From the NCBI GenBank assembly GCA_963667795.1, contig OY764017.1:645236-709235 (forward strand): DNA of 64,000 bases, in the 5' to 3' direction. Position numbers and translations under genes: made by a program. This DNA is from Christensenellaceae bacterium. GTDB lineage: Bacteria; Bacillota; Clostridia; Christensenellales; CAG-138. Under the pieces are notes generated by a model. The model did no database searches, was not told the DNA's origin, and saw only the letters and a list, made by a program, of their open reading frames with translations. Of the stretch, positions 1 to 51,653 are shown one piece after another (the first letter of the stretch is position 1; each line of letters opens with the position of its first letter).

Positions 1-390
1 TATCAGCCCGCGAACGATGGACTTGCGGACATTGTTTTCGTTTACGCCTTCGATTTGAGCGATTCTGTGCTTGCTTATCCCGAGAAAGTAGAGCGAATAG
101 ATACGGCGAGCTTGTATTTCCGGCAGTTTCTTGATTGCACAGAGAAGCCGTTCCTGCCGTAAGCGGTGCTCTACCAGCTCTTCTGCGGAAGGCGCAAGCA
201 GTAGTATGTCGTTTTCAATACCGTCGTCTCGATCCAGTGAAAAATAAGCCTTGTACCGATAGGTGCGCAATCGGTACGCAGCTTCTTGATTCTTGAAGGT
301 ATGCATTTGTGCTGCAATGTGGTCCGGGACTTCGACGAAACAGTCGGATGTGTAGTAGGGGTAATAATGTCTTAAATTGATCCGTTTCAT
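1..390 (-). CDS. Small sigma-70 region-4-like HTH protein of the kind carried by Firmicutes mobile elements. Starts at 390; the 3' end runs off the window.
   Basis: ATG at 388-390 lies 6 nt after AAAGGAG. The frame stays open to position 1 and translates MKRINLRHYYPYYTSDCFVEVPDHIAAQMHTF...LPEIQARRIYSLYFLGISKHRIAQIEGVNENNVRKSIVRGL. It is missing from the ORF track because there is no stop in the window. Confidence 0.6.
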   Translation of the reverse strand, partial: MKRINLRHYYPYYTSDCFVEVPDHIAAQMHTFKNQEAAYRLRTYRYKAYFSLDRDDGIENDILLLAPSAEELVEHRLRQERLLCAIKKLPEIQARRIYSLYFLGISKHRIAQIEGVNENNVRKSIVRGLI

Positions 391-467
391 TTTTTGCTCC
401 TTTCCAGTTCTGGTGTGCTGTGCCGACTGGAAGGAGGTTGGAGGAGAGCGGATTCTAATTTCCGGGC

Positions 468-510
468 AACCAAATAAAACGCCGCAAGCGGGGTAAAATC
501 CGTTTGCGGC
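468..510 (-). terminator. Intrinsic terminator after the surface-protein gene
   Basis: Hairpin GCCGCAAACGG-loop-CCGCTTGCGGC on the minus strand (481-510), followed by GTTTTATTTGG. Confidence 0.6.
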
Positions 511-560
511 GCTTCGTATGAAGTTGGCGAACGTTTTCTACACGTCCGGCTCCGCGGGAA

Positions 561-1955
561 TTACCGCATCTTCATCATTCTGGAGAATTTGCCAATGATA
601 ATGATCGACGTTAGAATCGCAATGATCGCAAGTCCGAACAGCAGCGAGACCCACCACTGCGAAAGTGTCTTTTGTTCTTCGGCCTCTTTTTCGGCCTTTT
701 CTTTTTCTTCGTCCGTTTCTTTGACGGGTTCCAGAATCTCTATTTTAAGCTCCACATTCTCCTGAAACTGTTCGCCGTCCGCGTCTTCGTAGGTGAACTC
801 GCAGGAGCCGTAAGTCGTTCCGTATTTGGTCGTGCTGTCGATCGTCGTGGCAAAGATCGACATCGTTTTGTCGGATGACTGTTCCGGTTCGAGATTGCCC
901 AGATACGCAGAGGCCGCGATCAGACCCGGAACGTCTAATGTGCATTTCACATTGTAGATCGTCGTGAGCCCCGTGTTGTACACGTTGACCGGCAGAGTGA
1001 ATGATTCGCCGGAAGTGATCTTTTCCGGCAACTCCACCTTATCGTGCGAGAACAAAATCGGTTGATCGACGGTCACACGAAACGCCGCGGTTTCCGTGAA
1101 TGCAACGTTGCTCGAACTTTCGTAGGAGATCGTGGCAGTCATGGTGTGCAGTCCGCCGAGCGCCATCGGCAGTGCCTGCATGTCGAACGAGAACTCCGCT
1201 TCCTTGGTACGCGCGAGCCCAAGCAGATACGGCGCGCTGTACTCGTTCAACAGAATGATGTTTTCGTCGTCGCTCGTAACGGCGACGCGGATGTTATGCG
1301 CCGTCCGCCGGCCGACGTTTTTCACCGTCATATCGACGTGCAGTGTGTCTCCGCTTTCCAGCGTGTCCGGCGCGACCACGCAGTCGGTCACCACCAAGAC
1401 CGGCTTGGACGAGGTCACGCCGCCGCTGCTTCCGGAGGAGGAAGGACTTTCTGTGGGCGAACTCGTATCGGTCGATTTGCCGTCCGTGATCGTCACATAC
1501 ATTGTAAAATTCTGAAAGATCGTATTTCCGCTCAAATCGAGCCCTTCCACCGTGATGACGACCGGATAGACACCGTTTTTCCGGTCGGTGGACAGCGCAA
1601 GGTCGAAGCGGATATAGTAACACTCTTTCGTGCCGGTGCCGTTGTTGACCGACTGCGTGCTCAGCGGCACGGATTTCTGGTAGTTGCCGAATACGAACGG
1701 CGCGGTTTCGGTACTGCCGAGATTCGGCGTGGCCGTAATCGTGCTCCCGGAAATACTGCCGGTCGTGACCAGTGGCAGGACGATCGTAGCGACATTGTTC
1801 GCCACGGTCGGGGAATATCCCTGACTGTACGTCATCGCCATCCCGTCGTAGAGGTTTGCGTCGTCAATGCCGAGGATGACCGAGGAAGTATCGGCCAGCG
1901 CGGCGGCCGGGACGATAAGAAGCAGAGTTAGGATACCGAGCATCCAACGTTTCAC
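561..1955 (-). CDS. Secreted, membrane-anchored surface protein with CARDB/COG1361-like repeats
   Basis: ORF 561..2033 trimmed to the GTG at 1953-1955, which forms a GTGA overlap with the ATPase stop and has AGAAGG 9 nt upstream. This gives signal peptide VKRWMLGILTLLLIVPAAALA. Contains TVKNVGRRTAHNIRV-type motifs and a C-terminal TM (WWVSLLFGLAIIAILTSIIIIG). The ATG at 1943 is an alternative start. Confidence 0.6.
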   Translation of the reverse strand: MKRWMLGILTLLLIVPAAALADTSSVILGIDDANLYDGMAMTYSQGYSPTVANNVATIVLPLVTTGSISGSTITATPNLGSTETAPFVFGNYQKSVPLSTQSVNNGTGTKECYYIRFDLALSTDRKNGVYPVVITVEGLDLSGNTIFQNFTMYVTITDGKSTDTSSPTESPSSSGSSGGVTSSKPVLVVTDCVVAPDTLESGDTLHVDMTVKNVGRRTAHNIRVAVTSDDENIILLNEYSAPYLLGLARTKEAEFSFDMQALPMALGGLHTMTATISYESSSNVAFTETAAFRVTVDQPILFSHDKVELPEKITSGESFTLPVNVYNTGLTTIYNVKCTLDVPGLIAASAYLGNLEPEQSSDKTMSIFATTIDSTTKYGTTYGSCEFTYEDADGEQFQENVELKIEILEPVKETDEEKEKAEKEAEEQKTLSQWWVSLLFGLAIIAILTSIIIIGKFSRMMKMR

Positions 1956-2626
1956 GATCGATCGCCTTCTTTCATCTTGTGTTCCCGAACCACCGTCAGC
2001 ACACCCGCGTCCATCTCGCAAACGGTGTCGCACAATTCTTCGATATCCTGAATATTATGGCTGGCTAGCAGGATCGTCCGCCCGCCCTTTGCAAGCGATT
2101 TGAACAGTTCGCGCATCTCCGCAACGCCGTGTTTGTCCAGCCCGTTCAGCGGCTCGTCGAGGATCATTAAACTCGGTTCCTCCATGATCGCCTGTGCAAT
2201 GCCGAGGCGCTGCCGCATGCCGAGCGAATACTTGCCGACCGGCTTGGACATCATGGGATCGAGCCCGACGCGCCGGATCGTGTCCGCAACCTGCTTTAGG
2301 CCAATCTTGCGTTTCAACCCGGCAAGGATCTCAAGGTTTTTCAACCCCGAAAACTGCGGCAAAAACCCGGGTGATTCGATGATGATTCCGATATCGTCCG
2401 GAAAGTCGACGTCCCGCCCGATCTGCTTGCCGTCGACCAGCACCTTGCCTTCGGTCGGCTGCAAAAAGCCACAGATGCACTTGAACATGACCGTCTTTCC
2501 GGAGCCGTTGTTGCCAACGATGCCGTGGATTTTCCCGCGCTCAAAATCGTGGGTGATGCCTTTGAGCACCGTGTCCTGCCCGAAGGTTTTGATGAGGTTT
2601 TGGAGTTGAATGGTGGGTTTGCTCAT
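1952..2626 (-). CDS. ABC transporter ATP-binding protein
   Basis: Walker A GNNGSGKT, ABC signature LSLGMRQRL, Walker B LMILDEP. ATGA overlap with the permease stop at 2623-2626. Confidence 0.9.
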   Translation of the reverse strand: MSKPTIQLQNLIKTFGQDTVLKGITHDFERGKIHGIVGNNGSGKTVMFKCICGFLQPTEGKVLVDGKQIGRDVDFPDDIGIIIESPGFLPQFSGLKNLEILAGLKRKIGLKQVADTIRRVGLDPMMSKPVGKYSLGMRQRLGIAQAIMEEPSLMILDEPLNGLDKHGVAEMRELFKSLAKGGRTILLASHNIQDIEELCDTVCEMDAGVLTVVREHKMKEGDRS

Positions 2627-4359
2627 TGATCTCCTCCCGTAAAGTGGAAGCTATACGTCCGCAGCGCCAACAACGTGAGTACGTACAGTAAAACGATTGC
2701 TGCGCCAAAGATGATGAATGTTTGCCAGAGCCGCGGCAACAGGTCGTAACCGAAGTTGTGCATGTGATACGTCGCCTGATTCAGCGGCGAAAGCCACCCG
2801 ACTGCCACGTTAGCCTTGTAAAGCAATTCGTCCGGCAGTTCGAAAATCTGTTTGAACAGTTGCGGATTCAGCAAGAAACCAAACAGGCTGAACGCGAACG
2901 CCGTTGCAATTCCCGCGGATTTGCCGCGCCGGATGTTGACGAACAGCATGAGAAAGACCATCACCAGCGTGTAAAGGAGCATGAGCAGCAATATTGTCGA
3001 AGCACATTCATACGGCCTGCTGAGTTCAAGCGTTTTGACCAGCGCCGGAAGCGCGACCGCCTTGCCCGCGCCGGAATAGCCGAGGATCGCCGCCGTTTCC
3101 GACCACATGTTGCCGATAAAGCTGTTGCCCATGCAGATGATCGTCGTCGCGGCAAAGATGAAAAGGATGTACAGCACCGTCGCGACCGATACGTAGACCG
3201 CCTGCCCCATGAGCCATGTGCGCCGCTTCATGCGGATAAGATAGTACGGCACACCTGCGCCGAGAAACGGCATGTCGACGAACAGCAGCACCAGCAGCAG
3301 CGAGATCAAAAGCACGGAGTTCGCGTCCCCGAACGTCCAGACGAACGGTTCGAACGCCTGCATGGTCGTGCCCATGTCGTATGCAAACGATGCCGCCTTG
3401 TCCGAGAGGAGAAAGCAGAGGATGAACGCGAGTGCGAACGTCAGCAGCACGCGCGCGTTGCCGCGCCACATGCGGAAGTTATAGCGCACGACCGATCGCA
3501 CCTGTCGCAGTTCGCCGAACAGGCGAAGCTTTCGCGCAGGGCGGAACGGTCTGTCCAGACGGACTTTTCTTTGTGGAAACAGCGTGCGAATGGACTTCCT
3601 TGCGTTGTCGTCGCGCAGATGGTCCTGTGCGATCAGATAGAAGCCGAGCATACAACCCGCCAGCAGGACGACCATTGTGATGCCTGCGCTCCAGCCACCG
3701 AACGGCCACGTACCTTCCAGCGTCAGGTAGTTCTGCGGGTTGAGCATGAAGACGTCGCGCGCGTAGCGCTCCTGCAGAATAATCAGCACATAATAGAGGA
3801 TGAACGGGGCGGAATACGCCATGTAGGCGTTCATGGTCACGGTCGAAAGCAACATACCGAGCATCGCCCAAAGCGCGCCTGCAAAGCCAAACAGGACGAT
3901 CTTGCCGATCAGTTCCGGCAGCTGTGATTGCACCGCCGTCTCCCCGAACGTCTCTACCGGCATGACGACCAGCGAAACGAGGACGTATCCGCCGAGAATG
4001 CCAAGCGTAAGCGTCAGAAAGCCCGAGATCGCGCAGGAAAGCTCTTTACCGAGGATATAACGCGTGACCGTCGTTCGCGGTAAAAATTGCTTGAGGTAGC
4101 CGCTTTTGAAATCGTCCACGAACGCGCCGGCATATGGGATCGTCGCCAAAATCGGCGCGGCAAACAGGATTGCATTGCCGGACAGCGCGCTGATCGTGAT
4201 GCGCCGGTGCGCAAACAGCGCCGCCGCCGGCTTTTCAAGCATGTAGATCGAGAGTACGTCCGAAAACGCGCTTAGCAGCACGCAAAGCATCGTGCCAAGT
4301 ACGCTTAGCACGAATGCTTTGGATAACGCTCGATTGAGGTCGGATCGTAGTTCGGGCAA
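2623..4359 (-). CDS. Polytopic ABC-type permease (578 aa)
   Basis: TTG start at 4357-4359, 7 nt after AAAGGAG. Hydrophobic throughout with many TM-like segments. Translationally coupled to the ATPase gene. Confidence 0.75.
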   Translation of the reverse strand: MPELRSDLNRALSKAFVLSVLGTMLCVLLSAFSDVLSIYMLEKPAAALFAHRRITISALSGNAILFAAPILATIPYAGAFVDDFKSGYLKQFLPRTTVTRYILGKELSCAISGFLTLTLGILGGYVLVSLVVMPVETFGETAVQSQLPELIGKIVLFGFAGALWAMLGMLLSTVTMNAYMAYSAPFILYYVLIILQERYARDVFMLNPQNYLTLEGTWPFGGWSAGITMVVLLAGCMLGFYLIAQDHLRDDNARKSIRTLFPQRKVRLDRPFRPARKLRLFGELRQVRSVVRYNFRMWRGNARVLLTFALAFILCFLLSDKAASFAYDMGTTMQAFEPFVWTFGDANSVLLISLLLVLLFVDMPFLGAGVPYYLIRMKRRTWLMGQAVYVSVATVLYILFIFAATTIICMGNSFIGNMWSETAAILGYSGAGKAVALPALVKTLELSRPYECASTILLLMLLYTLVMVFLMLFVNIRRGKSAGIATAFAFSLFGFLLNPQLFKQIFELPDELLYKANVAVGWLSPLNQATYHMHNFGYDLLPRLWQTFIIFGAAIVLLYVLTLLALRTYSFHFTGGDQ

Positions 4360-4430
4360 GATGGGGCTCCTTTATGCGAAACGTTAGTTCACCTGCGCAT
4401 AACAACACAAAACACTTGCGAATAATGGCG

Positions 4431-5855
4431 CTAGTATCCTTTTGTAGGATCGATGATCGTTCCATCGATCGCATTGATGACTACGAGCGGGTTAGCTTGA
4501 ACTTTAGTATTGAATGTTTGAACTGAACCATCAGATGCCACATATTGTACCGTTCCAAAGAAACACCACACAGGGACTAAAAGCCCTGAATCTATTGATT
4601 CTTGTTCCAGAATCCGCTGCTCACCTAAATATACATCGGTAATTTCTATATCAATGTTAGTAACGTCGGCGGCTCCATCAACAGGAAGCTGATAGTACGT
4701 AATTGCGCGACTAAAAATTTTGAAAATATCCTCATATGGCAACAACGACGCGTTTTTTATTAGCATCTCTTGTTCTTCATATGGAGATACCCAATCTATT
4801 CTATAAACTCCATTATTATCCATTGTAATGTTCAGTTGTTCATATGCCCATGAACCAGTGTAATCATCGTTTGAAACTAATGAAAGTACCGAAAAAAGAA
4901 CAGTCCCTGTACCATGTACATCCCTAGAGCACCTTACTCTATACGAATATTCTGAAGGCGTATTAGGGTAAGAACCATCGCTTTCTTTTATACTATCCGC
5001 AACAAGTAGTACGTCAAAAACACTGTAAGGAAGCGAAAGCTGATCAAGCAAGGATTCTGCTCTGGCTTGCGCTTCTTGAGGTGTGTAACTCAATTTATTT
5101 ACAGCCATTGCATCAATCGAGTTCATGTCTGTTACATCTTTCAAAATGATCTCTCCCCTGTCGGGAGCCTTGATCCTGCGATTATCGCAATACATAAATT
5201 CTGCGCCTTTAACCGATGATGACGACCAATTGTTTCGGACATATAGACAGCGCCCATTGTTTAATGAAGGGCTGCTTTCTCCAACGTCCACTCCGGTATA
5301 GCTGTATTCGGACCCACCATAATTCGCTTTATAGTCAACCAGCGCAGTCGATGCCGTCTTGTGGATCACTACTTCAGGTGCTGAATTATATTGTGATTGC
5401 AACTGCGCTAAACTGCTAACATAATCATCATGCATATCGTTCTGATCATAAGCTGTCTCAAGTTGCTTGAGTAAACTAATTTCATACGCAACTTCATCTT
5501 TAGACATTTCATAACTTTGTTGATCATACAACACTGCATCCTTAAGGAACACATTCGCTACTTTATCGATCATGTTTTGAGAAAAATCTATTGCTTTTAC
5601 TCTATAAATCGGGAAATTGACACCTAATACATGAATACGAGCATTTGCATTAACATGGATACTCTTATTACTAATATCACACTCGAAATTTGCGGGTAAT
5701 GTTTCAACGGCTAATTTTGTTGGTTCTTTCGCGATTTTCAACATATTATTAAGATTCTTTGCTTCTACAATGTTGGTTTCAGGTGTTTCTTTACAGCCAA
5801 CAAGGCTAAAAATCAGCGAGATAGCAACTATTATTAGTGCAGTTTTTTTAAGCAT
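4431..5855 (-). CDS. Lipoprotein, paralog family A (474 aa)
   Basis: Signal peptide with lipobox MLKKTALIIVAISLIFSLVGC. The C-terminal motif PVWCFFGTVQY...INAIDGTIIDPTKGY is shared with the 445-aa paralog. AT-rich relative to the transporter genes. Confidence 0.75.
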   Translation of the reverse strand: MLKKTALIIVAISLIFSLVGCKETPETNIVEAKNLNNMLKIAKEPTKLAVETLPANFECDISNKSIHVNANARIHVLGVNFPIYRVKAIDFSQNMIDKVANVFLKDAVLYDQQSYEMSKDEVAYEISLLKQLETAYDQNDMHDDYVSSLAQLQSQYNSAPEVVIHKTASTALVDYKANYGGSEYSYTGVDVGESSPSLNNGRCLYVRNNWSSSSVKGAEFMYCDNRRIKAPDRGEIILKDVTDMNSIDAMAVNKLSYTPQEAQARAESLLDQLSLPYSVFDVLLVADSIKESDGSYPNTPSEYSYRVRCSRDVHGTGTVLFSVLSLVSNDDYTGSWAYEQLNITMDNNGVYRIDWVSPYEEQEMLIKNASLLPYEDIFKIFSRAITYYQLPVDGAADVTNIDIEITDVYLGEQRILEQESIDSGLLVPVWCFFGTVQYVASDGSVQTFNTKVQANPLVVINAIDGTIIDPTKGY

Positions 5856-5956
5856 CTTGATTTCTCCCCGATCTATTATTTGATTATAACAACTATTTCG
5901 AGCAGTTCATATACGGTTGCTCTGCGGCATATTCCGCAGAGCAACCGTTTCTGAAG

Positions 5957-6391
5957 TTAACCTGCTGCGTATTTACCGCGAACATATGCGGTAATCCCTG
6001 TTCCCTGTGATCCTGCATTTAACCCCATATATCCGGCATAGTATGTATTTTGGTTAAGTCCAGACCACGTGTATGTAGTACTTACATTTCCGCTAGCATT
6101 GGGCATATAAGTTAGCATCGAAGAGACAAAAGTATTTAGGGCAGTCGCAAGGCCAATATCATAGTTGATATAATTTGTGCCGCTACTCCCATAGAATGTA
6201 ACTTTTATTTTCTTAGTGCTGGTAGGATACCACTTTTTGCCAGTATAATAGAATTGTTTGATAGGGCCCGCCGTACCCGTGTCGTATGGCAAGCTTCCTG
6301 TAGTACTGGGGAAACTACCAAGTGCATATACATCTGCTACGAAACTAAAAACCAGAACAAAGCATAGTATTGTCGCTATGATTTTTTTCAT
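5957..6391 (-). CDS. Small secreted protein (144 aa)
   Basis: ORF 5957..6607 trimmed to the ATG at 6389-6391 after AAAGGAGAAACGC. Signal peptide MKKIIATILCFVLVFSFVADVYA. N-terminus is paralogous to the IS-disrupted gene at 9378-11063. Confidence 0.65.
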   Translation of the reverse strand: MKKIIATILCFVLVFSFVADVYALGSFPSTTGSLPYDTGTAGPIKQFYYTGKKWYPTSTKKIKVTFYGSSGTNYINYDIGLATALNTFVSSMLTYMPNASGNVSTTYTWSGLNQNTYYAGYMGLNAGSQGTGITAYVRGKYAAG

Positions 6392-6765
6392 GCGTTTCTC
6401 CTTTATATATTGTGTTATTGTTTTTGAAAAGGTACAATTTGTATTGTCCTTGTGAACGCCATCACTTTGGTGATGGGGGCTGTCCGGCTCAATGTTTACA
6501 AGGACTTTTTCTTTGGACCAATCATAGGCATCCCCCCTAGATCGTGATCGTTCATATTGCGCCCTATGAGCGCAGCAAAGCTTGTATTGCTTCAATCTCA
6601 CCAACATAAAAGTTCGCTCGAATCCAGCCTGAATCGGCTCTCTATATATAAGACGTTTTACACCCGCTAAAATGTGACATTAAAATCGAAAAATTTTCGT
6701 TGTGCCCTACTATATAAACAACTTTTCAGCAAAAAAGGGACATTCTTTTGAAATTGTAAACCCGA
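6392..6765 (-). promoter_or_regulatory. Conserved about 370-nt leader/promoter region, copy A (copy B is at 11064-11477)
   Basis: Aligns by eye along its whole length with 11064-11477. Contains a nested hairpin, GTCCTTGTAAAC...CCATCAC-loop-GTGATGG...GTTCACAAGGAC, on the minus strand (6446-6505). Confidence 0.45.
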
Positions 6766-6861
6766 AAACGCGCCGAACAGCACGCAAAGCATCGTGCCAA
6801 GTACGCTCAGCACGAATGCTTTGGATAAAGCTCGGTTGAGATCGGAGTATAGTTCGGGCAA
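6766..6861 (-). pseudogene. Orphan 5' fragment of the permease gene (RBS, TTG start and about 32 codons)
   Basis: Translates MPELYSDLNRALSKAFVLSVLGTMLCVLFGAFSG, against MPELRSDLNRALSKAFVLSVLGTMLCVLLSAFSD in the intact gene at 4359. Homology stops abruptly at about 6766. Confidence 0.8.
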
Positions 6862-6948
6862 GGTGAGGCCTCCTTTTTACTTGTGCTATACCAAACCATG
6901 TTGTCAATAACCGAGTACAGGATTGACGATACTTCCATTAATAGCTTT

Positions 6949-7773
6949 TTAGTTTTCGCCAACATATAAATATGGTTTGTCATTAATGCAAGATTCCCAT
7001 CCGTCTGGATAATATTTTATTTGGTAGATGTCGCCATCGATCGATGGGCAGGGAATCGATATCGTGTAGCAGGCGCCACTATTAATGTGGACTTTACAAA
7101 AGCAGATAAATTGATAGTCTTCATATTGGAAGGATATAGTGTCACTTATAAACGTATCGCCCATCACCTCCTGATCGCTGGACAAGTCCTCGGAAAAACG
7201 TATCATTGCAGCTTCAAGTACGGTTTCTTCTTCTTGTACGACGCTTGCGTCATCACGGTCAATGGGTTGCCCGTCAATTATCGCGTTCCTATATGTCAAG
7301 TTTAACAATTCGAGCATTTGACCGGTCTTCGCGTCAACGTTGCATTGATATTTAGGGACCGTACCATCAGCATCAGGCGCTAATATCACGTAGACTGGAT
7401 TTTGGTTGTTCAATGTGATTGTAACGGTTAACAGGCCGATATCCGTTCCTATCTGCCGAAGAAGTTCCTGGGCGGCACATTGCGCGGCATCTTCAGGCGT
7501 TATCGTTGCAAGGTTCATCGCTTCTTCATCAGAATCCGTACAGTAATCCTGATAATAAAACGAATACTGGCGGTTTAAGGCTTCGTTGGTAGCCACAACT
7601 TCTTTTTTCGGGAGATCAGGCAAATCCTCCCAATTGATTTGGTCAATCTGCGGCGCAAACGTAGCAAGAGATGCATTTGTGATCTCTTCCTCTTGTGCGG
7701 TGTTTTGTTTTGTGCATGCACAGCAGCCAAGTATCAAAGCGATTATAAGCACACTACTGATGATTTTTCTCAT
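6949..7773 (-). CDS. Lipoprotein (274 aa), possibly ending at a premature stop
   Basis: Lipobox MRKIISSVLIIALILGC. Directly after its TAA (6949-6951), the same frame continues as KAINGSIVNPVLGY then a stop, which resembles the family C-terminal motif. Confidence 0.7.
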   Translation of the reverse strand: MRKIISSVLIIALILGCCACTKQNTAQEEEITNASLATFAPQIDQINWEDLPDLPKKEVVATNEALNRQYSFYYQDYCTDSDEEAMNLATITPEDAAQCAAQELLRQIGTDIGLLTVTITLNNQNPVYVILAPDADGTVPKYQCNVDAKTGQMLELLNLTYRNAIIDGQPIDRDDASVVQEEETVLEAAMIRFSEDLSSDQEVMGDTFISDTISFQYEDYQFICFCKVHINSGACYTISIPCPSIDGDIYQIKYYPDGWESCINDKPYLYVGEN

Positions 7774-7783
7774 ATTTTTTCTC

Positions 7784-7850
7784 CTAATATCCCATTGTTG
7801 GATCGATTATTGTTCCGTCAATTGCATTAATAGCAAATAAAGGTGGGTCT
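7784..7850 (-). pseudogene. Orphan 3' fragment of a family-A lipoprotein gene
   Basis: Translates ...DPPLFAINAIDGTIIDPTMGY then a stop, against ...NPLVVINAIDGTIIDPTKGY then a stop at 4431. There is an in-frame TGA just upstream. Its end supplies the TAGGAG ribosome-binding site of the 274-aa gene. Confidence 0.7.
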
Positions 7851-7940
7851 CCTCTGAAGCAATTTCAATTGTTTGCTTAGTTATTTTGCTCAGGGTTAAG
7901 TATCAGAGATTAATTTTAACAATATAAAAGTAAAGCATGT

Positions 7941-9278
7941 TCAATAACCCAACATTCTATCAATACGTTTTCCGGTCAAAGCATTAATGGTGCATAAGCT
8001 GTTATATGCAATAGATTCATCTTGCATCTGATTCCCATATACATTTGACATTGCAATATACTTTACGTCACCATTATCGTCGATATATTCTATATTCCCA
8101 TAGAATTCCCAAACCGGTACCGCCAAAATTGCATTATTGGATCCAACGATACAAGACATGCCCAGTTCGACACTGTCAATACGAACTGTTATTCTCTTTG
8201 GGTCGATATTAAGTGACGAATAAGTATATCGATTCTGTGAAACCGACATAAATTGGCTCATGGCATTTAAAGCTTCGTCCACGCTGATGATTTGACATGC
8301 ATCCGTTTCAATTACTATAGAACAGGGTTGCTGCCAAACAAACTCAACTAATCCATCGTTGTCAAAATACATTTTTATCATTTCCCAGAATACGGTTTCA
8401 GCATACTCCCTTCCGGCCGTTCCACCCTCAATTTGTTGACTGAAAACCTGCTTTTGCCCGCCGATATTTCTCATATAGATAAGTTCTATTCTTTCATCAA
8501 CTGGGTAATCCGATATTCCCGTTTGATTTGCTGTGCTTGCCACTAGTGTATACTCAGCAGAAGTATATCTTATTGCACTCAGCGTAAAGTCATCGGCCAA
8601 TTCTAACTTTTTCAGAATGTTCTCTGCCCGCTGCAAGGCATCTTCTTCAGATATCGGGCGAGGGGTGGGTTGTCCTTGCATGATATCCTTCCACCTGTAG
8701 TTGCTAATACGTATAAAGTTTTTTCTATTACCACCTCCTATTACGAGCACGGCTTTGTTCTTGCACCCGGTTTGGATTTTAGCCTCCTGTTCCGTCATTA
8801 CTTCGTCGATAGAAATGGCAGGTTCCGTTTCGGGTGCTGAACCAAGCGCATCCTGCATATTTGCAATAATGCCTTCGAGCATTTGTATATTATCGGCTGA
8901 CAACTTATCACGTACCGAATCCAATTGGTTGGTGTAAGTTTGGATATGTGAAGTGAGTTCGGGCCAGGTCTCACAAGCTTTGTAAAAGGTATGATTGTTT
9001 GAAAAGGCGTAGGCGACGTTATCGACAAAAGAAGCGTCAACCGATTGCCATGTAATGTTTCCCTGTAGGAATTCTCCGTTTGGTTCAACAACGGAAGCTG
9101 ATATTACAAGTTGAATGCCATCATCAAGCGCAACGCATTTCTTGTATTGGATATACCCATTTTCTTCTTCTGTTTCATAAGATTCTGACGGTTGTGCTTC
9201 CATTCCGGGCGTTGGCTGGCAAGCTCCCAATACACCCAGCAGTACTATAACAGTAATGAAGATTAAGATTTTTTTCAT
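7941..9278 (-). CDS. Lipoprotein, paralog family A (445 aa)
   Basis: Lipobox MKKILIFITVIVLLGVLGAC. C-terminal PVWEFYGNIEY...INALTGKRIDRMLGY parallels the 474-aa paralog. Confidence 0.75.
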   Translation of the reverse strand: MKKILIFITVIVLLGVLGACQPTPGMEAQPSESYETEEENGYIQYKKCVALDDGIQLVISASVVEPNGEFLQGNITWQSVDASFVDNVAYAFSNNHTFYKACETWPELTSHIQTYTNQLDSVRDKLSADNIQMLEGIIANMQDALGSAPETEPAISIDEVMTEQEAKIQTGCKNKAVLVIGGGNRKNFIRISNYRWKDIMQGQPTPRPISEEDALQRAENILKKLELADDFTLSAIRYTSAEYTLVASTANQTGISDYPVDERIELIYMRNIGGQKQVFSQQIEGGTAGREYAETVFWEMIKMYFDNDGLVEFVWQQPCSIVIETDACQIISVDEALNAMSQFMSVSQNRYTYSSLNIDPKRITVRIDSVELGMSCIVGSNNAILAVPVWEFYGNIEYIDDNGDVKYIAMSNVYGNQMQDESIAYNSLCTINALTGKRIDRMLGY

Positions 9279-9611
9279 ATTACTGATTTCCTTTCGGCAC
9301 TATATATGACGAATGTTGCTTTGTTCTGTGCACCAGCGTTAACGCTGGTGCACAGAACAAAATTAGAAGAAAAATCATCAGCTTGTTGTATAGCCGCCAT
9401 GCCGGATTTCAACATTTCCATGAATATAGTAGTCCGCATCATAATTCCGGAATCTAACCCTATAGTAAGTATTTGCATCTAGCGTATTATAGTTTGTACT
9501 ATCACCATTCCATATATATTTTCTTTGCATCGATCTAATGCTTTGAGGGAGTGTGCTAAAATATCGGACAGCATGGTAAGAGATTATAATAGGGATTAGG
9601 AGGACGAAACC

Positions 9612-9893
9612 ATGCTGAAACAACGAACCCAATACGATGATGAATTCAAGAAAAATGCGGTCAAACTAAGTTATGCAAGTCCAAAGCCGGTACGAGCCGT
9701 CGCAGACGATCTGGGCATAGCAGTAAACCTGCTGTACAACTGGCGCAAGAAATATACGGCGTCAGGCGAAAAAACGCCAATGGCCACAATGGAGGAAGAA
9801 CTCAAGGCGCTCCGGCTGGAAAACGCAGAATTGAAAATGGAGCGCGACATGCTAAAAAAAGCAGCGGCCTACTTTGCGAAGCTCCAGAAGTGA
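9612..9893 (+). CDS. IS3-family transposase OrfA (HTH)
   Basis: MLKQRTQYDDEFKKNAVKLSY...LYNWRKKY. An A7G slippery run at 9854-9861 lies near the 3' end, suitable for a -1 frameshift into OrfB. Confidence 0.9.
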   Translation: MLKQRTQYDDEFKKNAVKLSYASPKPVRAVADDLGIAVNLLYNWRKKYTASGEKTPMATMEEELKALRLENAELKMERDMLKKAAAYFAKLQK

Positions 9894-10768
9894 AATACAG
9901 ATTTATCTTTGAACATCCCGAATACCCGAAAGCAAAGTGGGCCGCGCAAATGAAGGTGTCGCGAAGCGGGTATTACCATTGGAAACGAACGCGGGCTCAG
10001 CGAGAGAAGCGCAAATGCGAGTATGCCGAACGGGTTCGACGCGTATTCATGGCGGGAGAATGGACATATGGCGCGAGTCGTATCTGCGGGAGACTCAGAA
10101 CGGAAGGATTCTCTTGCAGTTTTTACAAGGTGCGCGATTCCATGGAGATGCAAGGGCTGCGCTCGATCCATCGCAAAAAGCGCCGGCGATCCCTGACAGA
10201 CAGCCGGAAAGCGCGTGGCGATGGATATGCAAATCTGACGAGAAACCTTCGGATAGATGCACCTTTTCAGGTTCTCTCAAGCGATATCAGCTATATACGC
10301 ACGGGGGAAGGATTCGACTATCTGTGCCAGATCAAAGACGTGAAGAGCGGGATTGTCCTGGCGGAGAGTATGTCTGAACACATGAAAGCAGAGCTGGTCG
10401 TGAAAACGATTCGGAAAGCGTTACAACGTTGGGATATTCCAACGGGATGTATTTTTCACAGTGATCGCGGGAGCCAGTACACATCGGAGAGCGTAATGAA
10501 CTTGCTTACTAACGAAGGCCTTCGGCAAAGCTTTTCACGCGTAGGCATGCCGGGCGATAACAGCTGGAGTGAAAGCTTCTTTGCAAACCTGAAGAAGGAA
10601 GCGGTTCACTGGACCCATTTCCGGACGCGGGATGACGCCAAGCAAAAGTTATTTGCCTATATCGAAGGATTCTACAATACCAGACGAGTGCAAAAACGTC
10701 TTGGGTACTTAAGTCCTATGCAATGGCTAATGTGCTGGAATCAAGGCATTCAAGAATCTGTTGCTTAG
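9890..10768 (+). CDS. IS3-family transposase OrfB (DDE/rve integrase domain)
   Basis: Lies in the -1 frame relative to OrfA. Motifs SDISYIRT, FHSDRGSQYTS and SWSESFFANLKKE. Confidence 0.9.
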   Translation: MKYRFIFEHPEYPKAKWAAQMKVSRSGYYHWKRTRAQREKRKCEYAERVRRVFMAGEWTYGASRICGRLRTEGFSCSFYKVRDSMEMQGLRSIHRKKRRRSLTDSRKARGDGYANLTRNLRIDAPFQVLSSDISYIRTGEGFDYLCQIKDVKSGIVLAESMSEHMKAELVVKTIRKALQRWDIPTGCIFHSDRGSQYTSESVMNLLTNEGLRQSFSRVGMPGDNSWSESFFANLKKEAVHWTHFRTRDDAKQKLFAYIEGFYNTRRVQKRLGYLSPMQWLMCWNQGIQESVA

Positions 10769-11063
10769 CATTCTGTCCGAAAAAGTGTTGCATTCCCTGA
10801 TCCGTTGCTCGAATCTGGAGCAATTGTGCGTATTGACTTCCCACTAAAGGTGATGTGGAGTGTTTTGTTGGATACACTTGAGCGTTCACTGTAAAATACA
10901 GCATTTGCGATGAATAATTCGTATATGGCTTAAATCTATAGGAACTGTCTACATAAGCTATTATATTGATTTTTGCATCATAAGTAGAGTAAGCAAGCGC
11001 AACAGAAGCAAAAGAAAATACCAGTACAAATACGAGAATAGTCGCAAGGATGCGTTTTTTCAT

Positions 11064-11477
11064 TACGAATATCTCCTTTCGAATTAGAAGTGCCAAGTAT
11101 AATATGGCTTGAACCCAAGTTTGAATCGAAATATAATAGTATTGTCCTTGTGAACGCCATCACATTCGTGATGTGGGCTGACCCGCTCATTGTTTACAAG
11201 GACATTTTCTTTGGCACAATCATAGGCATCCCCCCTAACATCATGATTGTTCATATTGCGCTCTTTGAGCGCAGCAAAGCTTGTTCGCTTTTGTTTGCCA
11301 GTGCAAATGTTCGCTCCAATTCGATTTGAGTTGCCCCTCTCTATATAAGACGTTTTACACCAGTCAAAATGTGACATCAAATTAGAAAATTCTCGTTACC
11401 CTCTACTATATAAACGATTTTTCAGTGAAAAATGGGACGTTCTTTTGAAATTTTCTCGCACTGCGAGGTTAACCCCA
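11064..11477 (-). promoter_or_regulatory. Conserved leader/promoter region, copy B
   Basis: Homologous to 6392-6765. Has the same outer stem (GTCCTTGTGAAC / GTTTACAAGGAC on the plus strand) and an inner hairpin CATCAC-ATTC-GTGATG whose loop differs from copy A. Confidence 0.45.
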
Positions 11478-11572
11478 AACGTGCCAAACAGCACAAAAGG
11501 CATCATGCCAAGTGTTATTAATACGAGTGCTTTGGATAATGCGCGATTGCGATCGGAATGAGGCGCGGGCAA
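11478..11572 (-). pseudogene. Second, more diverged orphan 5' fragment of the permease gene
   Basis: TTG at 11570-11572 after TAGGAG. Translates (M)PAPHSDRNRALSKALVLITLGMMPFVLFGTFG, followed by the same leader sequence as copy A. Confidence 0.6.
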
Positions 11573-11903
11573 AGTGGGACTCCTATAAGTGAAAAGTCTG
11601 CAAGTGACCCGAAAGCGTGTATATTCTTCCCAGTAAATACGTACGGGCCTACTCTCGCAATTTCAGAACAACACCTCTTATCAATTACGCGCAGTTCACT
11701 TCTATGACGTTTAAACGCCATACAAAGAATTGGATGCGGAATTAGTGCGTTCTATTATTTAAGACACTATAAAGTGGAAAATTCGGCCTGGATTTACAAA
11801 AATAAGTAAATAATATATTTTTGCTTTTTTAGGCCGAATTTTCTGAAAGCAAGTGTCATATATATTGGTGTAAGCCAAATATTGTTTTAGAAAGGCAGAA
11901 ATT

Positions 11904-12296
11904 ATGAAAAGAAAAATCCTATGTTGTATGCTCGCGCTAATGATTTGCTTGAGCGTTTCCGGATCAGCGTTAGCCGCAACGCGACAGGCAGCGGGAAGCT
12001 GTTCGATGAGTGTTTCTGGAAAAAGCGTTTCTTATTCCGGATACTCTTCATCAGTTCAAACTGAAGACACCATTTCCGTTAAAGTGAAACTCATGGAGAA
12101 GCGTGGGTCTACTTGGTATCAAGTTGGATCAGCAGCATATAATAGTCTTAACGATGCAGACTTTGTTTCTGCTGGGAGATCTAAAACTGTTACCGGTGGC
12201 CATTATTATAAAGTCGTAGCAACACATTACTCACTAAAGAACGGTGTTGGTAGAACGGTCACTTCTCAAACTTCTGAAAGATGGATTGCAAACTAG
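11904..12296 (+). CDS. Small secreted protein (130 aa)
   Basis: Signal peptide MKRKILCCMLALMICLSVSGSALA. A terminator follows. Confidence 0.6.
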   Translation: MKRKILCCMLALMICLSVSGSALAATRQAAGSCSMSVSGKSVSYSGYSSSVQTEDTISVKVKLMEKRGSTWYQVGSAAYNSLNDADFVSAGRSKTVTGGHYYKVVATHYSLKNGVGRTVTSQTSERWIAN

Positions 12297-12308
12297 AAAA
12301 AATGATTG

Positions 12309-12352
12309 CGGGACTGCCCTGCAAATCGACGCAGTGACAGTCCCGTTTTTAT
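12309..12352 (+). terminator. Intrinsic terminator between convergent genes
   Basis: Stem CGGGACTG (12309-12316) pairs with CAGTCCCG (12338-12345), followed by TTTTTATT. Confidence 0.65.
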
Positions 12353-13197
12353 TACGAAATTGTAATGAACTTCAACAATTCTACCAGTGTATTCTGAGAC
12401 ATCTCAAAACTAGAAATGAATATCTCGCTGTTGTCGGTAAAAGTCCTGGCAAAAGCGGTCCCGTCTTCCATCGCTCCGATATAGTATTCTGTGCCTTCAG
12501 TTGTTTCGAATTCTCCAAAAGTGCCGTCCTCTATACTCGTCGCTGTTCCCGATGATTCGCTCACCGTTCGGTACTTTTGCTCTACTAATATAGATGCATC
12601 GTTGCTATAACTGTACTTAGATCTAATAAGTAATGACGCGTCTTCCACGCTTATTACATTTATACTTTCAAGTTCTGCCTTCTCTGCTTGAATATAGGCG
12701 ATAGGTAGCCCTAGCCAGCTCTCAGCATCATCTACATTGTCAAACGATAATGGCAGCTCAGAAAAATCAATTTCAGAGATGGTTGATCCTTGCTGTTGCG
12801 ATTGGAAGACCCCATCAATAATCTCAATTACAGTTTGATAAATCGAGCTTGCTAATGCTTTTCCTTTGTTAGTAAACAAGGAGAATCCCAAGAGCACAAG
12901 TATAACAGTCGCAACTATCCCAACGCGTCGAATTATGGGGCGCATTTTACGCTTGACCTGCAATGCGTACACTCTGTTTGCAAATTGAGCTGCAATACGT
13001 TCTGTATACAAAGAAAGTCTTAGCGGATCAGAATTCGCTTCGAGATCGTTTAACACTCTTTTCATAAAGGCCGACGCATCATTGGTTGAGGATTTTAGAA
13101 GCATGTCTGCCTCGGCACTGGTCAGAGCCGTCCCATTTATATCAAAATACGGGTGATCCAAAACTATCTGCTTTAGTTTTGTCCAATTCATTTTCAA
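12352..13197 (-). CDS. Putative anti-sigma factor (single-pass membrane protein)
   Basis: Located 13 bp downstream of the sigma gene. Has a cytoplasmic N-terminus, one TM (IVATVILVLLGFSLF) and an extracytoplasmic C-terminal domain. Confidence 0.55.
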   Translation of the reverse strand: MKMNWTKLKQIVLDHPYFDINGTALTSAEADMLLKSSTNDASAFMKRVLNDLEANSDPLRLSLYTERIAAQFANRVYALQVKRKMRPIIRRVGIVATVILVLLGFSLFTNKGKALASSIYQTVIEIIDGVFQSQQQGSTISEIDFSELPLSFDNVDDAESWLGLPIAYIQAEKAELESINVISVEDASLLIRSKYSYSNDASILVEQKYRTVSESSGTATSIEDGTFGEFETTEGTEYYIGAMEDGTAFARTFTDNSEIFISSFEMSQNTLVELLKFITIS

Positions 13198-13209
13198 TTC
13201 AAGTCCCTC

Positions 13210-13737
13210 CTACAGTAACACTAGAACTTCAATTTGCTGCAGTAGACTAGGATTCTTCGCGGCAATAGATTTTCTCATTTTAGCAAATCTTTTTGATAAG
13301 GCGTTTGGAGATAAGCCAAGACCTGGCGCTAGATCTTCGATTGGAATGTCCTCCAAATAATGCTTCTTAAATGCTTCACGATCTGCGTCCGGATATGCTT
13401 CCAATGCTCTATCTAGAAATATAATCCATTCTGCATAACAGTATGGCTTAGAGCTCTTTGAATCAGCCAGATGTTCCGTTGAATCCAAAAGGATAACTTT
13501 TCGAAAATTTGCTCCATCTCGCAAATAATTTATTGTTGCCCGTCTGAGGCAAACAGCTATATAAGCCATCGGTTCGTTCACATCCCGCAATAAATCGCGT
13601 CTTCGAAGTAGAGCGACTGCTGTATTATGCAATACCTCCTCTGCAATTCGAGTATCACCCGTAATCATTGTTGCTATCTTTTTTAAATCATAATAATTTT
13701 CTTCTAGAAACTTCTCGATATCAAATTCTTTGGCCAT
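13210..13737 (-). CDS. Sigma-70 family (ECF-like) RNA polymerase sigma factor
   Basis: ORF trimmed to the ATG at 13735-13737 after GGGAGAGG. Region-2-like segment EEVLHNTAVALLRR and region-4 HTH DIPIEDLAPGLGLSPNALSKRFAKMRKS. Confidence 0.7.
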   Translation of the reverse strand: MAKEFDIEKFLEENYYDLKKIATMITGDTRIAEEVLHNTAVALLRRRDLLRDVNEPMAYIAVCLRRATINYLRDGANFRKVILLDSTEHLADSKSSKPYCYAEWIIFLDRALEAYPDADREAFKKHYLEDIPIEDLAPGLGLSPNALSKRFAKMRKSIAAKNPSLLQQIEVLVLL

Positions 13738-13923
13738 GAACCTCTCCCGAGCAATATTGCTTTCAGTGCCTATTCTAGATAATCTATTCAAAATATGTAT
13801 TAGGTTTCCAAGTTAGGGTACACTATATATTGAAAACATGCAATTCTTCAATTATCCTTATAGTTTTGATTTTGCTGCAAATTGCGAAATTTCACTTTCA
13901 TGCTTAAATTCAATAGGTTAATA

Positions 13924-13952
13924 TTGACATTCTAGCTTTATTTGTTTACGAT
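13924..13952 (+). promoter_or_regulatory. Candidate sigma-A promoter
   Basis: TTGACA (13924-13929), a 17-nt spacer, then TACGAT (13947-13952). Confidence 0.4.
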
Positions 13953-13959
13953 TGTTATA

Positions 13960-14115
13960 TAAGTGCTACCGTCGCAAGCAATTAACCATGGGCAACTTAA
14001 GATGTGGGGATTGTCTGCGAAAGCTGTGACTAACGAACTCATCTTAGTCCCAACATTATCTGTGAGGGCGAGTAGCATGCAAAGGACGTGCAGCAAATGC
14101 TGCGCGTCCCTTTTG
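13960..14115 (+). ncRNA. Candidate small structured RNA (promoter, closing stem and terminator); function unknown
   Basis: Closing stem GCTAC-CG-TCGC (13965-13975) pairs with GCGA-GTAGC (14068-14076). Then a strong hairpin GGACGTGCAGCA-AA-TGCTGCGCGTCC (14084-14109) followed by CTTTTG. No convincing ORF inside. Confidence 0.3.
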
Positions 14116-14647
14116 ATAAAACAAAGCTAAAACACCCTTTTGACTTTCACAGTACGATTCTTGAGTAATAGGCAATAAATCATTTAGTTGTAGCTTGACT
14201 ATTATAGCCTATTAGTTGCATTATAGATCGTTTTTCCGTTCTAACGCTTGGTCAAAAGGAGCCCAGAATTCAGGTGGATATTCAGGATGCTTGCTATAGC
14301 CGAGCATTTTTTGTTTTTTCTGATGTTGCTGTTCGAACACATTAGCGAGTTTTAACTACTTAATGTTGTATGTGAAATCATTTATGTTATAATTATCGGT
14401 AAAGAATCTAAAGTATATCTTGCCTCTTCCCAGTCCGATCAATATCATACTGCTAATGATATAAAACTCACAACTACTTTGATGTGTTGAGAAATAATCA
14501 TTCCCTGCCAAACAAAAGCGCGTAGTCGCAGCACTTGAGGGAATCTGCCAAATTGCAAAATGCCGAAATATGATGATGCCATTGCTCTCTTTCGAATAGC
14601 TAACGGCATGTATGATTCATGCACATCCAGTAAAGGAGTGAAAGACT

Positions 14648-14848
14648 ATGGCTATTTCAAAAATTACAATATGCAATTTCAAGGGTTTCAAGGGAACTTT
14701 TAAATTAGAGCTAAACCAAGGTCTCAATATACTAGTTGGTAATAATGAAACTGGGAAATCTACTGTTTTAGAGGCAATTCATCTTGCATTAACAGGTCTT
14801 TATAATGGGAAGTATATAAATAGCGAATTATCACAATATCTTTTCAAC
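14648..14848 (+). pseudogene. N-terminal fragment of an AAA/OLD-type (RecF-like) ATPase, truncated by IS insertion
   Basis: MAISKITICNFKGFKGTFKLELNQGLNILVGNNETGKSTVLEAIHLAL, with Walker A GNNETGKS. The reading frame runs into the IS end TGACCTGC at 14849, which supplies the stop. Confidence 0.7.
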
Positions 14849-14926
14849 TGACCTGCTCCCCCAAAAAGTAGTCCACTCAAAAAGAAAAAAAGATAGTAAA
14901 ATCAAAAAAAAGGAGTGGACGAAGAA

Positions 14927-39073: not shown

Positions 39074-39138
39074 GGGAGTGTGCTAAAATATCGGACAGCA
39101 TGGTAAGAGATTATAATAGGGATTAGGAGGACGAAACC

Positions 39139-51643: not shown

Positions 51644-51653
51644 GCTGTTCCTC

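Follow-up and report, generated by a model that had tools for sequence, protein, structure and literature searches.

A stack of lipoprotein cassettes, probably exchangeable, bounded by orphan 5′ ends of a transporter gene in a Christensenellaceae bacterium

How does the 5′ end of a transporter gene come to lie, more than once and without the rest of the gene, among the lipoprotein genes that precede it? The question is posed by a window of 64,000 nucleotides (nt) from a Christensenellaceae bacterium (GCA_963667795.1, OY764017.1, 645,236-709,235; all coordinates are in window numbering), in which genes for lipoproteins of the DUF6034 family stand upstream of an ATP-binding cassette (ABC) transporter operon. 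The region between that operon and an extracytoplasmic function (ECF) sigma/anti-sigma module is probably a stack of exchangeable DUF6034 expression cassettes, a cassette being the unit formed by a promoter-like motif, a structured leader, an optional small secreted-protein gene, a lipoprotein gene and the ribosome-binding site (RBS) with the first ~33 codons of the permease gene. Homology-driven gain, loss and swapping of such units is its likely history as judged from sequence comparison, and the orphaned permease 5′ ends would be by-products.

The genes of the array lie on the minus strand and are transcribed from high to low coordinates; sec130 is divergent (plus strand). In this order the sigma and anti-sigma genes, sec130, orphan permease copy 3, leader copy 3, a small gene split by an IS3-family insertion sequence (IS) and lipo445 are followed by a deletion scar (7853-7787), lipo274, a 13-codon DUF6034 tail, orphan copy 2 and leader copy 2, and then by small144, lipo474 and the intact operon of permease, ATPase and CARDB-protein genes. 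The junction elements and cassette genes are:

4260-4367, minus strand: intact copy, reference of repeat family D1, with RBS, TTG start and codons 1-33 (cytoplasmic N-terminus and first transmembrane segment, TM1)
6762-6869, minus strand: orphan copy 2, 89% identity, with RBS, TTG start and hairpin (6785-6823) intact; open for 64 codons (6667-6861)
11473-11580, minus strand: orphan copy 3, 72% identity, hairpin decayed; the most distal copy, with no lipoprotein tail upstream
7787-7853, minus strand: deletion scar, a 14-nt RBS/start remnant (7840-7853) joined to a 19-codon tail of a DUF6034 gene resembling lipo474 (7787-7843)
6904-6948, minus strand: last 13 codons of a deleted DUF6034 gene, AINGSIVNPVLGY and stop (coding 6907-6945)
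6392-6765, minus strand: leader repeat copy 2, comprising repeats D2-D6 in five collinear pieces
11064-11477, minus strand: leader repeat copy 3
4431-5855, minus strand: lipo474, DUF6034 lipoprotein of 474 amino acids (aa), GC content 0.39; PF19499, 217 bits, E = 4.8e-64
7941-9278, minus strand: lipo445, DUF6034 lipoprotein of 445 aa; PF19499, 96 bits, E = 3.3e-27
6949-7773, minus strand: lipo274, 274-aa lipoprotein of no Pfam family (not PF19499)
5957-6391, minus strand: small144, small secreted protein of 144 aa
9378-11063, minus strand: small secreted-protein gene split by the IS3-family element (9546-10797), 143 aa when rejoined
5906-5955, no strand: inverted repeat I2, 25-nt arms, 88% complementary, no spacer, directly after small144

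A preliminary description of this DNA had proposed that the RBS, TTG start and about 32 codons of the permease gene occur three times in the same orientation, and a repeat search of the window indeed returns the permease 5′ end as a single direct-repeat family of three copies, the orphans being 89% and 72% identical to the intact one. In a three-way alignment both orphans are homologous to the permease gene from the RBS to about nt 100, codon 33-34. That they break at a nearly identical codon is therefore correct as described, but the two breaks are not independent events: the sequences beyond the junction are themselves homologous, with a ~17-nt deletion in copy 2, and the two orphans break at one codon because both are copies of one ancestral junction. 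Their continuation into a common leader of ~370 nt is seen as a second repeat block, in which 6441-6755 matches 11139-11452 at 77-92% identity.

The further proposal that each junction is marked by the repeat holds for the three long copies, whereas the lipo445/lipo274 junction retains only a fourth permease RBS/start remnant of 14 nt, AGGAGACCCACCTT (7840-7853), fused to the tail at 7787-7843. Within two mismatches this sequence has three matches in the window against 0.18 expected, the other two being the intact copy and orphan 3. Fragments of the lipoprotein C-terminus recur, as had also been noted. The 7787-7843 tail encodes PLFAINAIDGTIIDPTMGY and a stop, with 84% identity over 19 aa to the end of lipo474 (tblastn E = 3e-8). 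The second tail, AINGSIVNPVLGY and its stop, is weak alone (E = 0.012) but can be taken as a real remnant, because in the closest locus, L001 (OY762278.1), an intact DUF6034 gene of 512 aa ends at the orthologous position. Orphan copy 3, we infer, was the original permease start of the locus, displaced by successive insertions, since no lipoprotein tail lies upstream of it, it adjoins the sigma/sec130 module and it is the most diverged copy.

Evidence that cassettes move comes from comparison with the nearest relatives, which are segments of other assemblies at ~90-99% identity, and with L007, a paralogous locus in the same genome as L001 (OY762278.1). The window equals L001 minus one cassette (about L001 5461-7900), and its leader copy 2 is chimeric: the 5′ side follows L001 5180-5461 and the 3′ side L001 ~7900-7967, the switch lying between window ~6500 and ~6480. 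Direct repeats that recombine by homology would leave such a chimeric leader, as would the reverse reaction. The preliminary description had recommended looking for deletion or insertion variants among strains and metagenomic reads; the comparison with other assemblies yields one, a one-cassette insertion or deletion with the crossover inside the leader repeat. The proposal in that description that direct-repeat recombination deletes modules stands in so far as this one-cassette difference goes, with the amendments that the operative repeat is a permease-5′-plus-leader unit of ~470 nt, recombined within the leader, and that cassettes are also gained and swapped. The second difference between window and L001 is a simple deletion on the window side, which has left only the final 45 nt of the 512-aa lipoprotein gene.

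Exchange is seen equally in the distribution of identity. From 6443 to 4423 the window and L001 show 20 differences in 2.0 kb (99.0%), against 23 in the next 210 nt (89%) and 88-93% identity throughout the permease gene. Within one genome, the small144-lipo474 cassettes of L001 and L007 are 99.2% identical while their flanks reach 91.3% (permease), 91.6% (ATPase) and 92.9% (CARDB), and in L095-L099 the same cassette (~92%) lies, single and without an orphan, beside a permease gene that is only ~78% identical. On these figures the cassette appears younger than its transporter flanks, and exchange appears to have reached across paralogous loci as well as across species. The limits of the high-identity block are ~6511, the 5′ edge of a structured RNA element described below, and ~4423-4330, in the intergenic and permease 5′ region, which argues that the conserved structured ends are where recombination resolves. 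Consistent with the exchange of whole units, the variant of the permease 5′ end goes together with the lipoprotein gene that precedes it; over 76 nt, a comparison of too low a resolution to reveal concerted evolution, all permease 5′ copies are 92-99% alike. Gene position varies too: lipo474 adjoins the permease gene in the window and in L001 but is third from it in L007, where it is interrupted by the same type of IS3 element and followed by an orphan permease 5′ end, and lipo445, distal in the window, adjoins the permease gene in L003 and L004. Recombination could, as predicted, bring a different lipoprotein gene beside the transporter.

The IS3-family element (orfB 292 aa) occurs twice in the window, in the split gene and at ~39100-40400, and a 95%-identical copy interrupts the lipo474 gene in L007 (3040-4291); this IS3 type appears to strike arrays repeatedly, since copies lie both in the window array and in the L007 lipo474 gene. 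In the window the element has open reading frames (ORFs) at 9612-9893 and 9890-10768 (plus strand; HTH_Tnp_1 and rve domains), its limits being taken from the L007 comparison. Its removal restores a protein of 143 aa with a signal peptide matching that of small144, in agreement with the earlier reading of this gene as a disrupted secreted-protein gene.

The same observations bear on whether the array could have arisen by tandem duplication in place, followed by divergence and with no exchange, the fragments and tails then being inert scars of a decaying locus. Decay is evident in the 72% identity and lost hairpin of orphan 3, in the two tail remnants, the 14-nt RBS remnant and the IS-split gene; the two window orphans share one ancestral junction; and plain duplications do occur in distant loci (a full permease copy in L017, a 242-aa fragment in L036). 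Duplication in place does not, however, explain a cassette that is ~99% identical across genomes and paralogous loci between flanks of 88-93%, nor its presence beside a 78% permease in L095 and at different positions in different arrays. Cassette and transporter histories already look incongruent on these data. The lipoproteins of one array are 20-40% identical while their junction repeats are 89-95% identical, and cassette GC differs from transporter GC, the step noted in the preliminary description being one from 0.39-0.44 in the cassette genes to 0.55-0.57 in the three transporter genes. We regard duplication without exchange as unlikely.

In the mechanism that we favour, homology-driven exchange, cassette ends would stay conserved, probably as functional RNA structures, and would thereby provide islands of homology between diverged loci. 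General homologous recombination, presumably RecA-dependent, would act through these ends by unequal crossing-over within an array, by ectopic conversion between paralogous loci or by integration of DNA from other strains. A donor segment in which an orphan 5′ end, a leader, one or more genes, a second 5′ end and the permease gene follow one another could pair with the intact permease gene of a recipient in two registers; insertion would add one orphan, and the reverse event would delete a cassette.

The layout is widespread. Among one-per-species genome contigs the permease has 258 relatives, mostly in Christensenellaceae/Clostridia metagenome-assembled genomes, and in most related loci the permease gene is flanked by 1-13 DUF6034 genes. 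Orphan 5′ ends precede the intact permease gene in L001 (three), L007 (two), L008 (3-4), L004 (two) and L003 (one) and occur also in the metagenome contigs L080, L085 and L088, while upstream lipoprotein genes without orphans are found in L005 (one gene) and in L002, L006 and L039 (arrays). More distant relatives carry longer duplicates, a full second permease copy in L017 and the 242-aa fragment of L036; L040 has a fragment of 70 nt. The sigma/anti-sigma/sec130 module is syntenic with array and transporter down to ~60% permease identity (L079, L078, L030 and L087). That the layout recurs in metagenome contigs and in no fewer than five related loci of Christensenellaceae rules out chance similarity, and this recurrence in independent assemblies, together with the non-identity of the copies, rules out an assembly artefact. 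Exact-protein look-ups with the window permease and lipo474 found nothing on record, and a metagenome scan with a 19-nt permease 5′ core returned 15 mostly short contigs, none of them a near-identical strain. An extra DUF6034 gene lies between the permease and ATPase genes in L001 (11753-13090) and L002 (12327-13778), a position empty in the window.

What, then, do the cassette ends carry that would keep them alike? Each leader holds a promoter-like motif and a structured RNA element:

6648-6679, minus strand: ECF-type promoter-like motif TGTCACA-N17-CGTCTTAT
11345-11376, minus strand: ECF-type promoter-like motif, second copy
6443-6508, minus strand: 66-nt three-stem structured RNA element, with a mini-ORF and its Shine-Dalgarno sequence at 6496-6525; covariance model R1, 86.8 bits against 24 in reverse
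11141-11206, minus strand: 66-nt structured RNA element, second copy, mini-ORF 11194-11223; covariance model R1, 83.2 bits

The motif, TGTCA(C/T)-N~17-CGTCTTAT, stands just 3′ of each orphan and has two matches in the window against 0.07 expected. Over 1.48 Mb scanned, all 11 strict matches (11/11) are on the sense strand and inside arrays, and a relaxed form gives 18 sense and 2 antisense matches. In L079 the form GTCAT-N~17-GTCTATAT precedes both the sigma gene (1367-1397) and the array (3471-3501), a placement that suggests the pattern of an autoregulated ECF sigma factor; in the window, the neighbouring sigma factor would be the one that uses the motif. A scan of 4000-14200 for sigma-70 promoters and intrinsic terminators showed no enrichment over shuffled sequence (32 against 26.1 and 8 against 8.4, respectively). 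In L095 (299-838), and also in L096 and L097, a different ECF sigma gene (179 aa, PF07638) lies directly upstream of the small144-lipo474 cassette, and in this type of leader a consensus sigma-A-like promoter, TTGCAA-N17-TATAAT, replaces the TGTCAC motif.

The 66-nt element consists of a 12-bp closing stem around two hairpins and usually follows a Shine-Dalgarno sequence and a mini-ORF of ~3-11 codons. Its structure was drawn by hand and then built into a covariance model, a first MAFFT/RNAalifold treatment having misaligned the inner hairpin and recovered the outer stem only. With this model 18 strong copies are detected in genome loci, to which metagenome contigs add four or five, at 49-89 bits on the sense strand against 14-27 bits antisense; copies lie at 82-147, 7406-7468 and 7851-7916 in L001, at 1986-2051, 5687-5752 and 8011-8076 in L007 and at 3763-3832 in L079. 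Standard pairs fill 81.7% of base-pair cells against 35-37% in slid controls, and in 13 of the 23 pairs both sides have changed, against 6.0 +/- 1.5 in shuffles, a count that none of 500 shuffles reached. The element also occupies sites between cistrons: in L001 and L008 it separates the stop codon of a lipoprotein gene from the permease start that follows, and in L036 and L009 it separates the ATPase gene from the CARDB gene. It matches no Rfam family: cmscan of positions 1-16000 with 4227 models at E <= 1 gave two spurious snoRNA matches elsewhere.

A promoter-like motif in every cassette bears on a further explanation, that the array is a programmed high-frequency switch, a system of phase or antigenic variation in which recombination between the repeats changes the lipoprotein co-expressed with the transporter. 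Direct repeats with intact RBS and start codons at the cassette ends would suit such a switch, as would a lipoprotein with a conserved C-terminus and a variable body, as expected of a variable surface protein. Yet with a promoter-like motif of its own no cassette needs the permease-adjacent position for expression; recombination between direct repeats gives irreversible deletions; a repeat search finds no inverted repeats (the inverted repeat at 5906-5955 being listed separately), nor is there an invertase; and the genomes differ as if by events that are rare in evolution. A programmed switch is accordingly very unlikely.

The permease 5′ end itself encodes structure:

4263-4321, minus strand: 17-bp hairpin (4283-4321; gene nt 39-77) followed by a 6-bp hairpin with UUUU (4263-4282; nt 78-97)

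The 17-bp hairpin spans permease codons 13-26. In the intact copy the fold has an RNAfold energy of -46.7 kcal/mol (z = -4.3), and among the orphans copy 2 still reaches z = -3.4, whereas copy 3, whose hairpin has decayed, stands at +0.85. No other 60-nt window of the 1.7-kb permease gene is as stable (rank 0 of 168), which holds equally for the permease gene in L001, L002 and L007, and in a distant clade (L019, L030) these codons form a hairpin from a different sequence, which suggests selection for structure within the permease coding sequence. Third-position identity is raised in codons 17-32 (0.76), though not uniquely so. The presence of G.U pairs leads us to favour action as a sense-strand RNA, and the orphan 5′ ends may leave each lipoprotein gene with a 3′ hairpin.

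Across loci at least five junction types can be told apart. The window type is common to L001 and L007, three others occur in L008, and further types are an in-frame fusion in L004 and a junction at 2179 in L001; all of these end at permease nt 79-112, just 3′ of the hairpins, while their sequences have no common core and their positions differ by up to ~30 nt. In the L004 fusion (8559-9929) permease residues 1-27, with the RBS, start and TM1, stand in place of a DUF6034 signal peptide, the in-frame chimera joining at the lipobox of a lipo445-like lipoprotein (…LGTMLCAFVAC/QPTP, with the slash at the join) whose L003 orthologue has an ordinary signal peptide.

This clustering invites the suggestion that structure-stimulated illegitimate recombination makes the junctions, the 17-bp hairpin stalling replication or being cleaved, with template switching or end-joining on its 3′ side. 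Such an origin concerns junction formation and can coexist with spread by homology. The orphan fragments do end right after the hairpin (39-77) or after the second hairpin and U-tract (78-97), and the hairpin is the most stable structure in the gene. The sample is small, however, with ~5-7 independent junction types, and selection would give the same pattern if a 3′ hairpin were needed or if longer permease fragments were toxic; longer fragments exist in distant relatives (242 aa in L036, the whole gene in L017), and the G.U pairs speak for a role at the RNA rather than the DNA level. We consider a structure-stimulated origin possible but doubtful. A stronger version, in which the 17-bp hairpin and the three-stem element would both be sites of structure-specific recombination or template switching, perhaps for a trans-acting enzyme, and cassettes would be captured as in integrons with no integrase in cis, seems to us improbable. 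If true, such structure-delimited capture would be a Firmicutes system that diversifies YycI-like surface lipoproteins working with a dedicated ABC transporter under ECF sigma control.

The junctions also recall site-specific insertion of the integron or tandem genomic island type, with the permease 5′ end as attachment site and each insertion restoring the gene while leaving a partial copy. A partial copy of the end of the target gene at each junction is the classic signature of tandem integration, the junction ends at nt 79-112 cluster beside the hairpins, and every cassette has a structured element. Nevertheless, Pfam searches of the ORFs at 0.5-22 kb, of most of the larger window ORFs and of genes next to arrays detected transposases of IS3 (rve) and IS256 only, with no recombinase of the tyrosine, serine or HUH class, and nothing in the rest of the window is a recombinase placed to serve the array. 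The junctions lack a common core and vary in position, the one mapped crossover lies in the leader and not at a junction, and the high-identity block does not end at one place in every comparison. As sense-strand RNA the structured element scores far higher, it contains G.U pairs, and its hairpin arms, read by eye with no scan run, show no attC R''/R' core of the consensus form (RYYYAAC / GTTRRRY); the cassette, moreover, has no match in plasmid or phage collections. Integron, tandem site-specific integration and IS200/IS605-like readings were set aside, there being no recombinase and no core that the junctions share, and we judge site-specific insertion to be highly improbable.

Several points weigh against cassette exchange by homology as the whole account. 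Homology explains the spread of existing junctions and not the first formation of the permease-5′/leader junction, and it does not by itself explain why junction ends cluster at nt 79-112, for which selection may be responsible, either keeping a 3′ hairpin or terminator-like structure or disfavouring longer permease fragments. The recombination is deduced from assemblies that are 78-99% identical. In the window the promoter-like motif occurs in the two leaders only, no matching motif lying upstream of the sigma gene, and we infer rather than observe that the lipoproteins work with the adjoining ABC transporter. Finally, the window array, in which an IS has entered one gene, two deletions have left scars and orphan 3 is down to 72%, is partly decayed and may be eroding rather than in active use.

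The lipoproteins that the cassettes deliver are variable in a particular way. Lipo474 covers positions 1-481 of the 481 in the PF19499 model, well above its cut-off of 27 bits, and strong conservation among 72 aligned DUF6034 members is confined to the lipobox cysteine and the final ~60 residues; Cys21 and residues 414-474 are invariant or nearly so, with the motif LLVPVW...INAIDG..I....GY. An AlphaFold2 model of lipo474 (predicted local distance difference test 90, predicted template-modelling score 0.86) matches the structures of an uncharacterised Eubacterium rectale protein (5coz, E = 9e-12) and of YycI (2o3o, E = 5e-5), so that this DUF6034 lipoprotein is predicted to have a YycI-like fold; YycI is a regulator of the sensor histidine kinase WalK. 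No useful match came from PDB sequence searches with the lipoprotein, permease and CARDB protein, and a full-text literature search found no paper mentioning DUF6034. Pfam searches at E = 10 returned no match for lipo274, for small144, which belongs to no known family, or for the rejoined IS-split protein. Lipo274 has an orthologue in L001 (94% at the nucleotide level) and a homologue in L092, there followed by a permease 5′ copy, and small144 has orthologues in L001, L007, L091 and L095-L098.

The genes that flank the array are:

561-2033, minus strand: CARDB-domain protein with an N-terminal signal or TM segment and a C-terminal TM anchor (hydropathy); PF07705, E = 1.8e-11
1952-2626, minus strand: ABC transporter ATP-binding protein; PF00005 (ABC_tran), E = 1.7e-29
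2623-4359, minus strand: ABC permease, 578 aa, polytopic with ~10-12 TM segments (hydropathy), GC content 0.57
11904-12296, plus strand: sec130, secreted protein of 130 aa, divergent from the array and syntenic in distant loci
12352-13197, minus strand: putative single-pass anti-sigma factor, 281 aa, TM segment at about residues 92-110
13210-13791, minus strand: ECF-type sigma-70 family factor, 193 aa; TIGR02937, 49 bits (cut-off 42.9), and PF04542

The transporter looks like an ABC exporter of the ABC-2-like kind. Its permease has no Pfam or NCBIfam match even at E = 10 and no sequence relative in the PDB; the NCBIfam models nearest to the ATPase are of lantibiotic-protection/DrrA/GldA type, every one below its cut-off; and the CARDB gene, last of the operon, is kept 3′ of the ATPase gene in related loci. 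The sigma factor has sigma-70 regions 2 and 4 only (PF04542 and PF08281), fits the ECF superfamily model and is syntenic with array and transporter in L079 and L030. Its putative partner has no Pfam match at E = 10, and homologues of that anti-sigma protein adjoin the sigma gene in L079, L078 and L030; for sec130, Pfam at E = 10 gives only a chance-level match (E = 0.19).

Taken together, the locus could be an envelope module in which the ECF sigma/anti-sigma pair would drive the cassette promoters. The lipoproteins themselves suggest variable membrane-anchored proteins whose conserved C-terminal domain docks on a conserved partner, as a surface component under diversifying selection, because a conserved C-terminus is combined with a variable body and horizontal exchange of cassettes. 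Phage, host and competitors are examples of agents that might select on such a surface function. Christensenellaceae are prominent and heritable members of the human and animal gut flora, and the arrays would represent a family-wide habit, variable YycI-like lipoprotein genes being kept beside a dedicated ABC transporter and an ECF sigma module. The conserved non-coding features found with them are the 66-nt leader RNA, the permease-gene hairpin and the ECF-type promoter motif, and, more generally, RNA structures kept for their function could at the same time supply portable homology through which cassettes are exchanged.

Elsewhere the window holds, at 14648-16833, an AAA_15/AAA_23 ATPase gene (OLD/AbiEii-like) of which the N-terminal 67 aa are left, cut by a second IS3-type element (14915-16002), and a truncated IS256/Mutator transposase gene (16024-16833). 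A bacterial eRF1-like family 3 protein (baeRF, PF18845, E = 2e-37) is encoded at 19073-20218, and on the minus strand 22867-31626 encodes a protein of 2919 aa with GH94 supersandwich, GH94 catalytic and glucoamylase domains that resembles cyclic beta-1,2-glucan synthase or phosphorylase. An AT-rich group II intron reverse transcriptase/maturase gene (42081-44036) adjoins a conjugative-element region (44463-64000) encoding a SNF2/ResIII giant protein, a CD1107-like protein, an NlpC/P60 hydrolase, VirB4/TraG-like and VirD4 coupling proteins, TrbL/VirB6 and DUF6017; pilus genes are also present in the rest of the window.

With which known systems does the array belong? The closest parallel is the lpl lipoprotein cluster of the Staphylococcus aureus nuSa-alpha island, where tandem paralogues recombine at conserved blocks (Tsuru & Kobayashi 2008, PMC2568036; PMC4470592) and the evolving unit spans the gene boundary (PMC2568036). 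Both are tandem sets of variable lipoprotein genes that homologous recombination at conserved nucleotide blocks rearranges, removes and shuffles. They differ in family and host, lpl proteins being DUF576 proteins of S. aureus and the present ones DUF6034/YycI-like proteins of Christensenellaceae; in that one block here comes from a transporter gene that lies downstream and is no paralogue, its 5′ end being copied as orphan fragments, and the other is a promoter-bearing leader with a structured RNA; and in that whole cassettes here also move between paralogous loci and species. Similarly, the esaG and tipC immunity arrays of type VII secretion systems recombine between conserved blocks (Garrett et al. 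2022, PMC9484751). They too are strings of non-identical paralogues in which homology blocks at gene ends account for copy loss and expansion, but they hold toxin-immunity genes and have neither orphan fragments of a neighbouring gene nor a promoter and leader for each cassette. The features of lpl- and esaG-type arrays recur here, in tandem non-identical paralogues, conserved blocks (permease-5′-plus-leader at 89-95%, and the C-terminal tail) and a breakpoint inside a block.

Other comparisons are less close. The orphan modules of contact-dependent inhibition (CDI) and Rhs loci each carry a short piece of the main gene, and homologous recombination brings a module to the expressed position. 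The likeness, which the preliminary description had drawn to orphan-module arrays at polymorphic loci, lies in arrays of variable modules, each with a short piece of a conserved main gene, but the geometry here is the mirror image, with modules upstream carrying the 5′ end of the downstream gene and having promoters of their own, so that they need not be silent; Pfam and NCBIfam searches found no toxin or immunity domains in the array modules. In integrons and in CALIN arrays, the latter without an integrase, cassettes of one or two genes are stacked in one orientation, each with a structured element. The present cassettes share that orientation and element, and a content that varies between relatives, but have no integron integrase, attI or attC core sites, and show imprecise junctions, a promoter per cassette and signs of homology-driven exchange. 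Capsule and O-antigen switching replaces a variable surface segment, of GC content unlike that of its flanks, horizontally through those conserved flanks; there one locus is replaced whole, whereas here the units are small and tandem and part of the flank is duplicated with them. The array is best described as a variant of tandem-paralogue recombination, new in that the homology is supplied by the orphaned 5′ end of a different, downstream gene together with an RNA-bearing leader.

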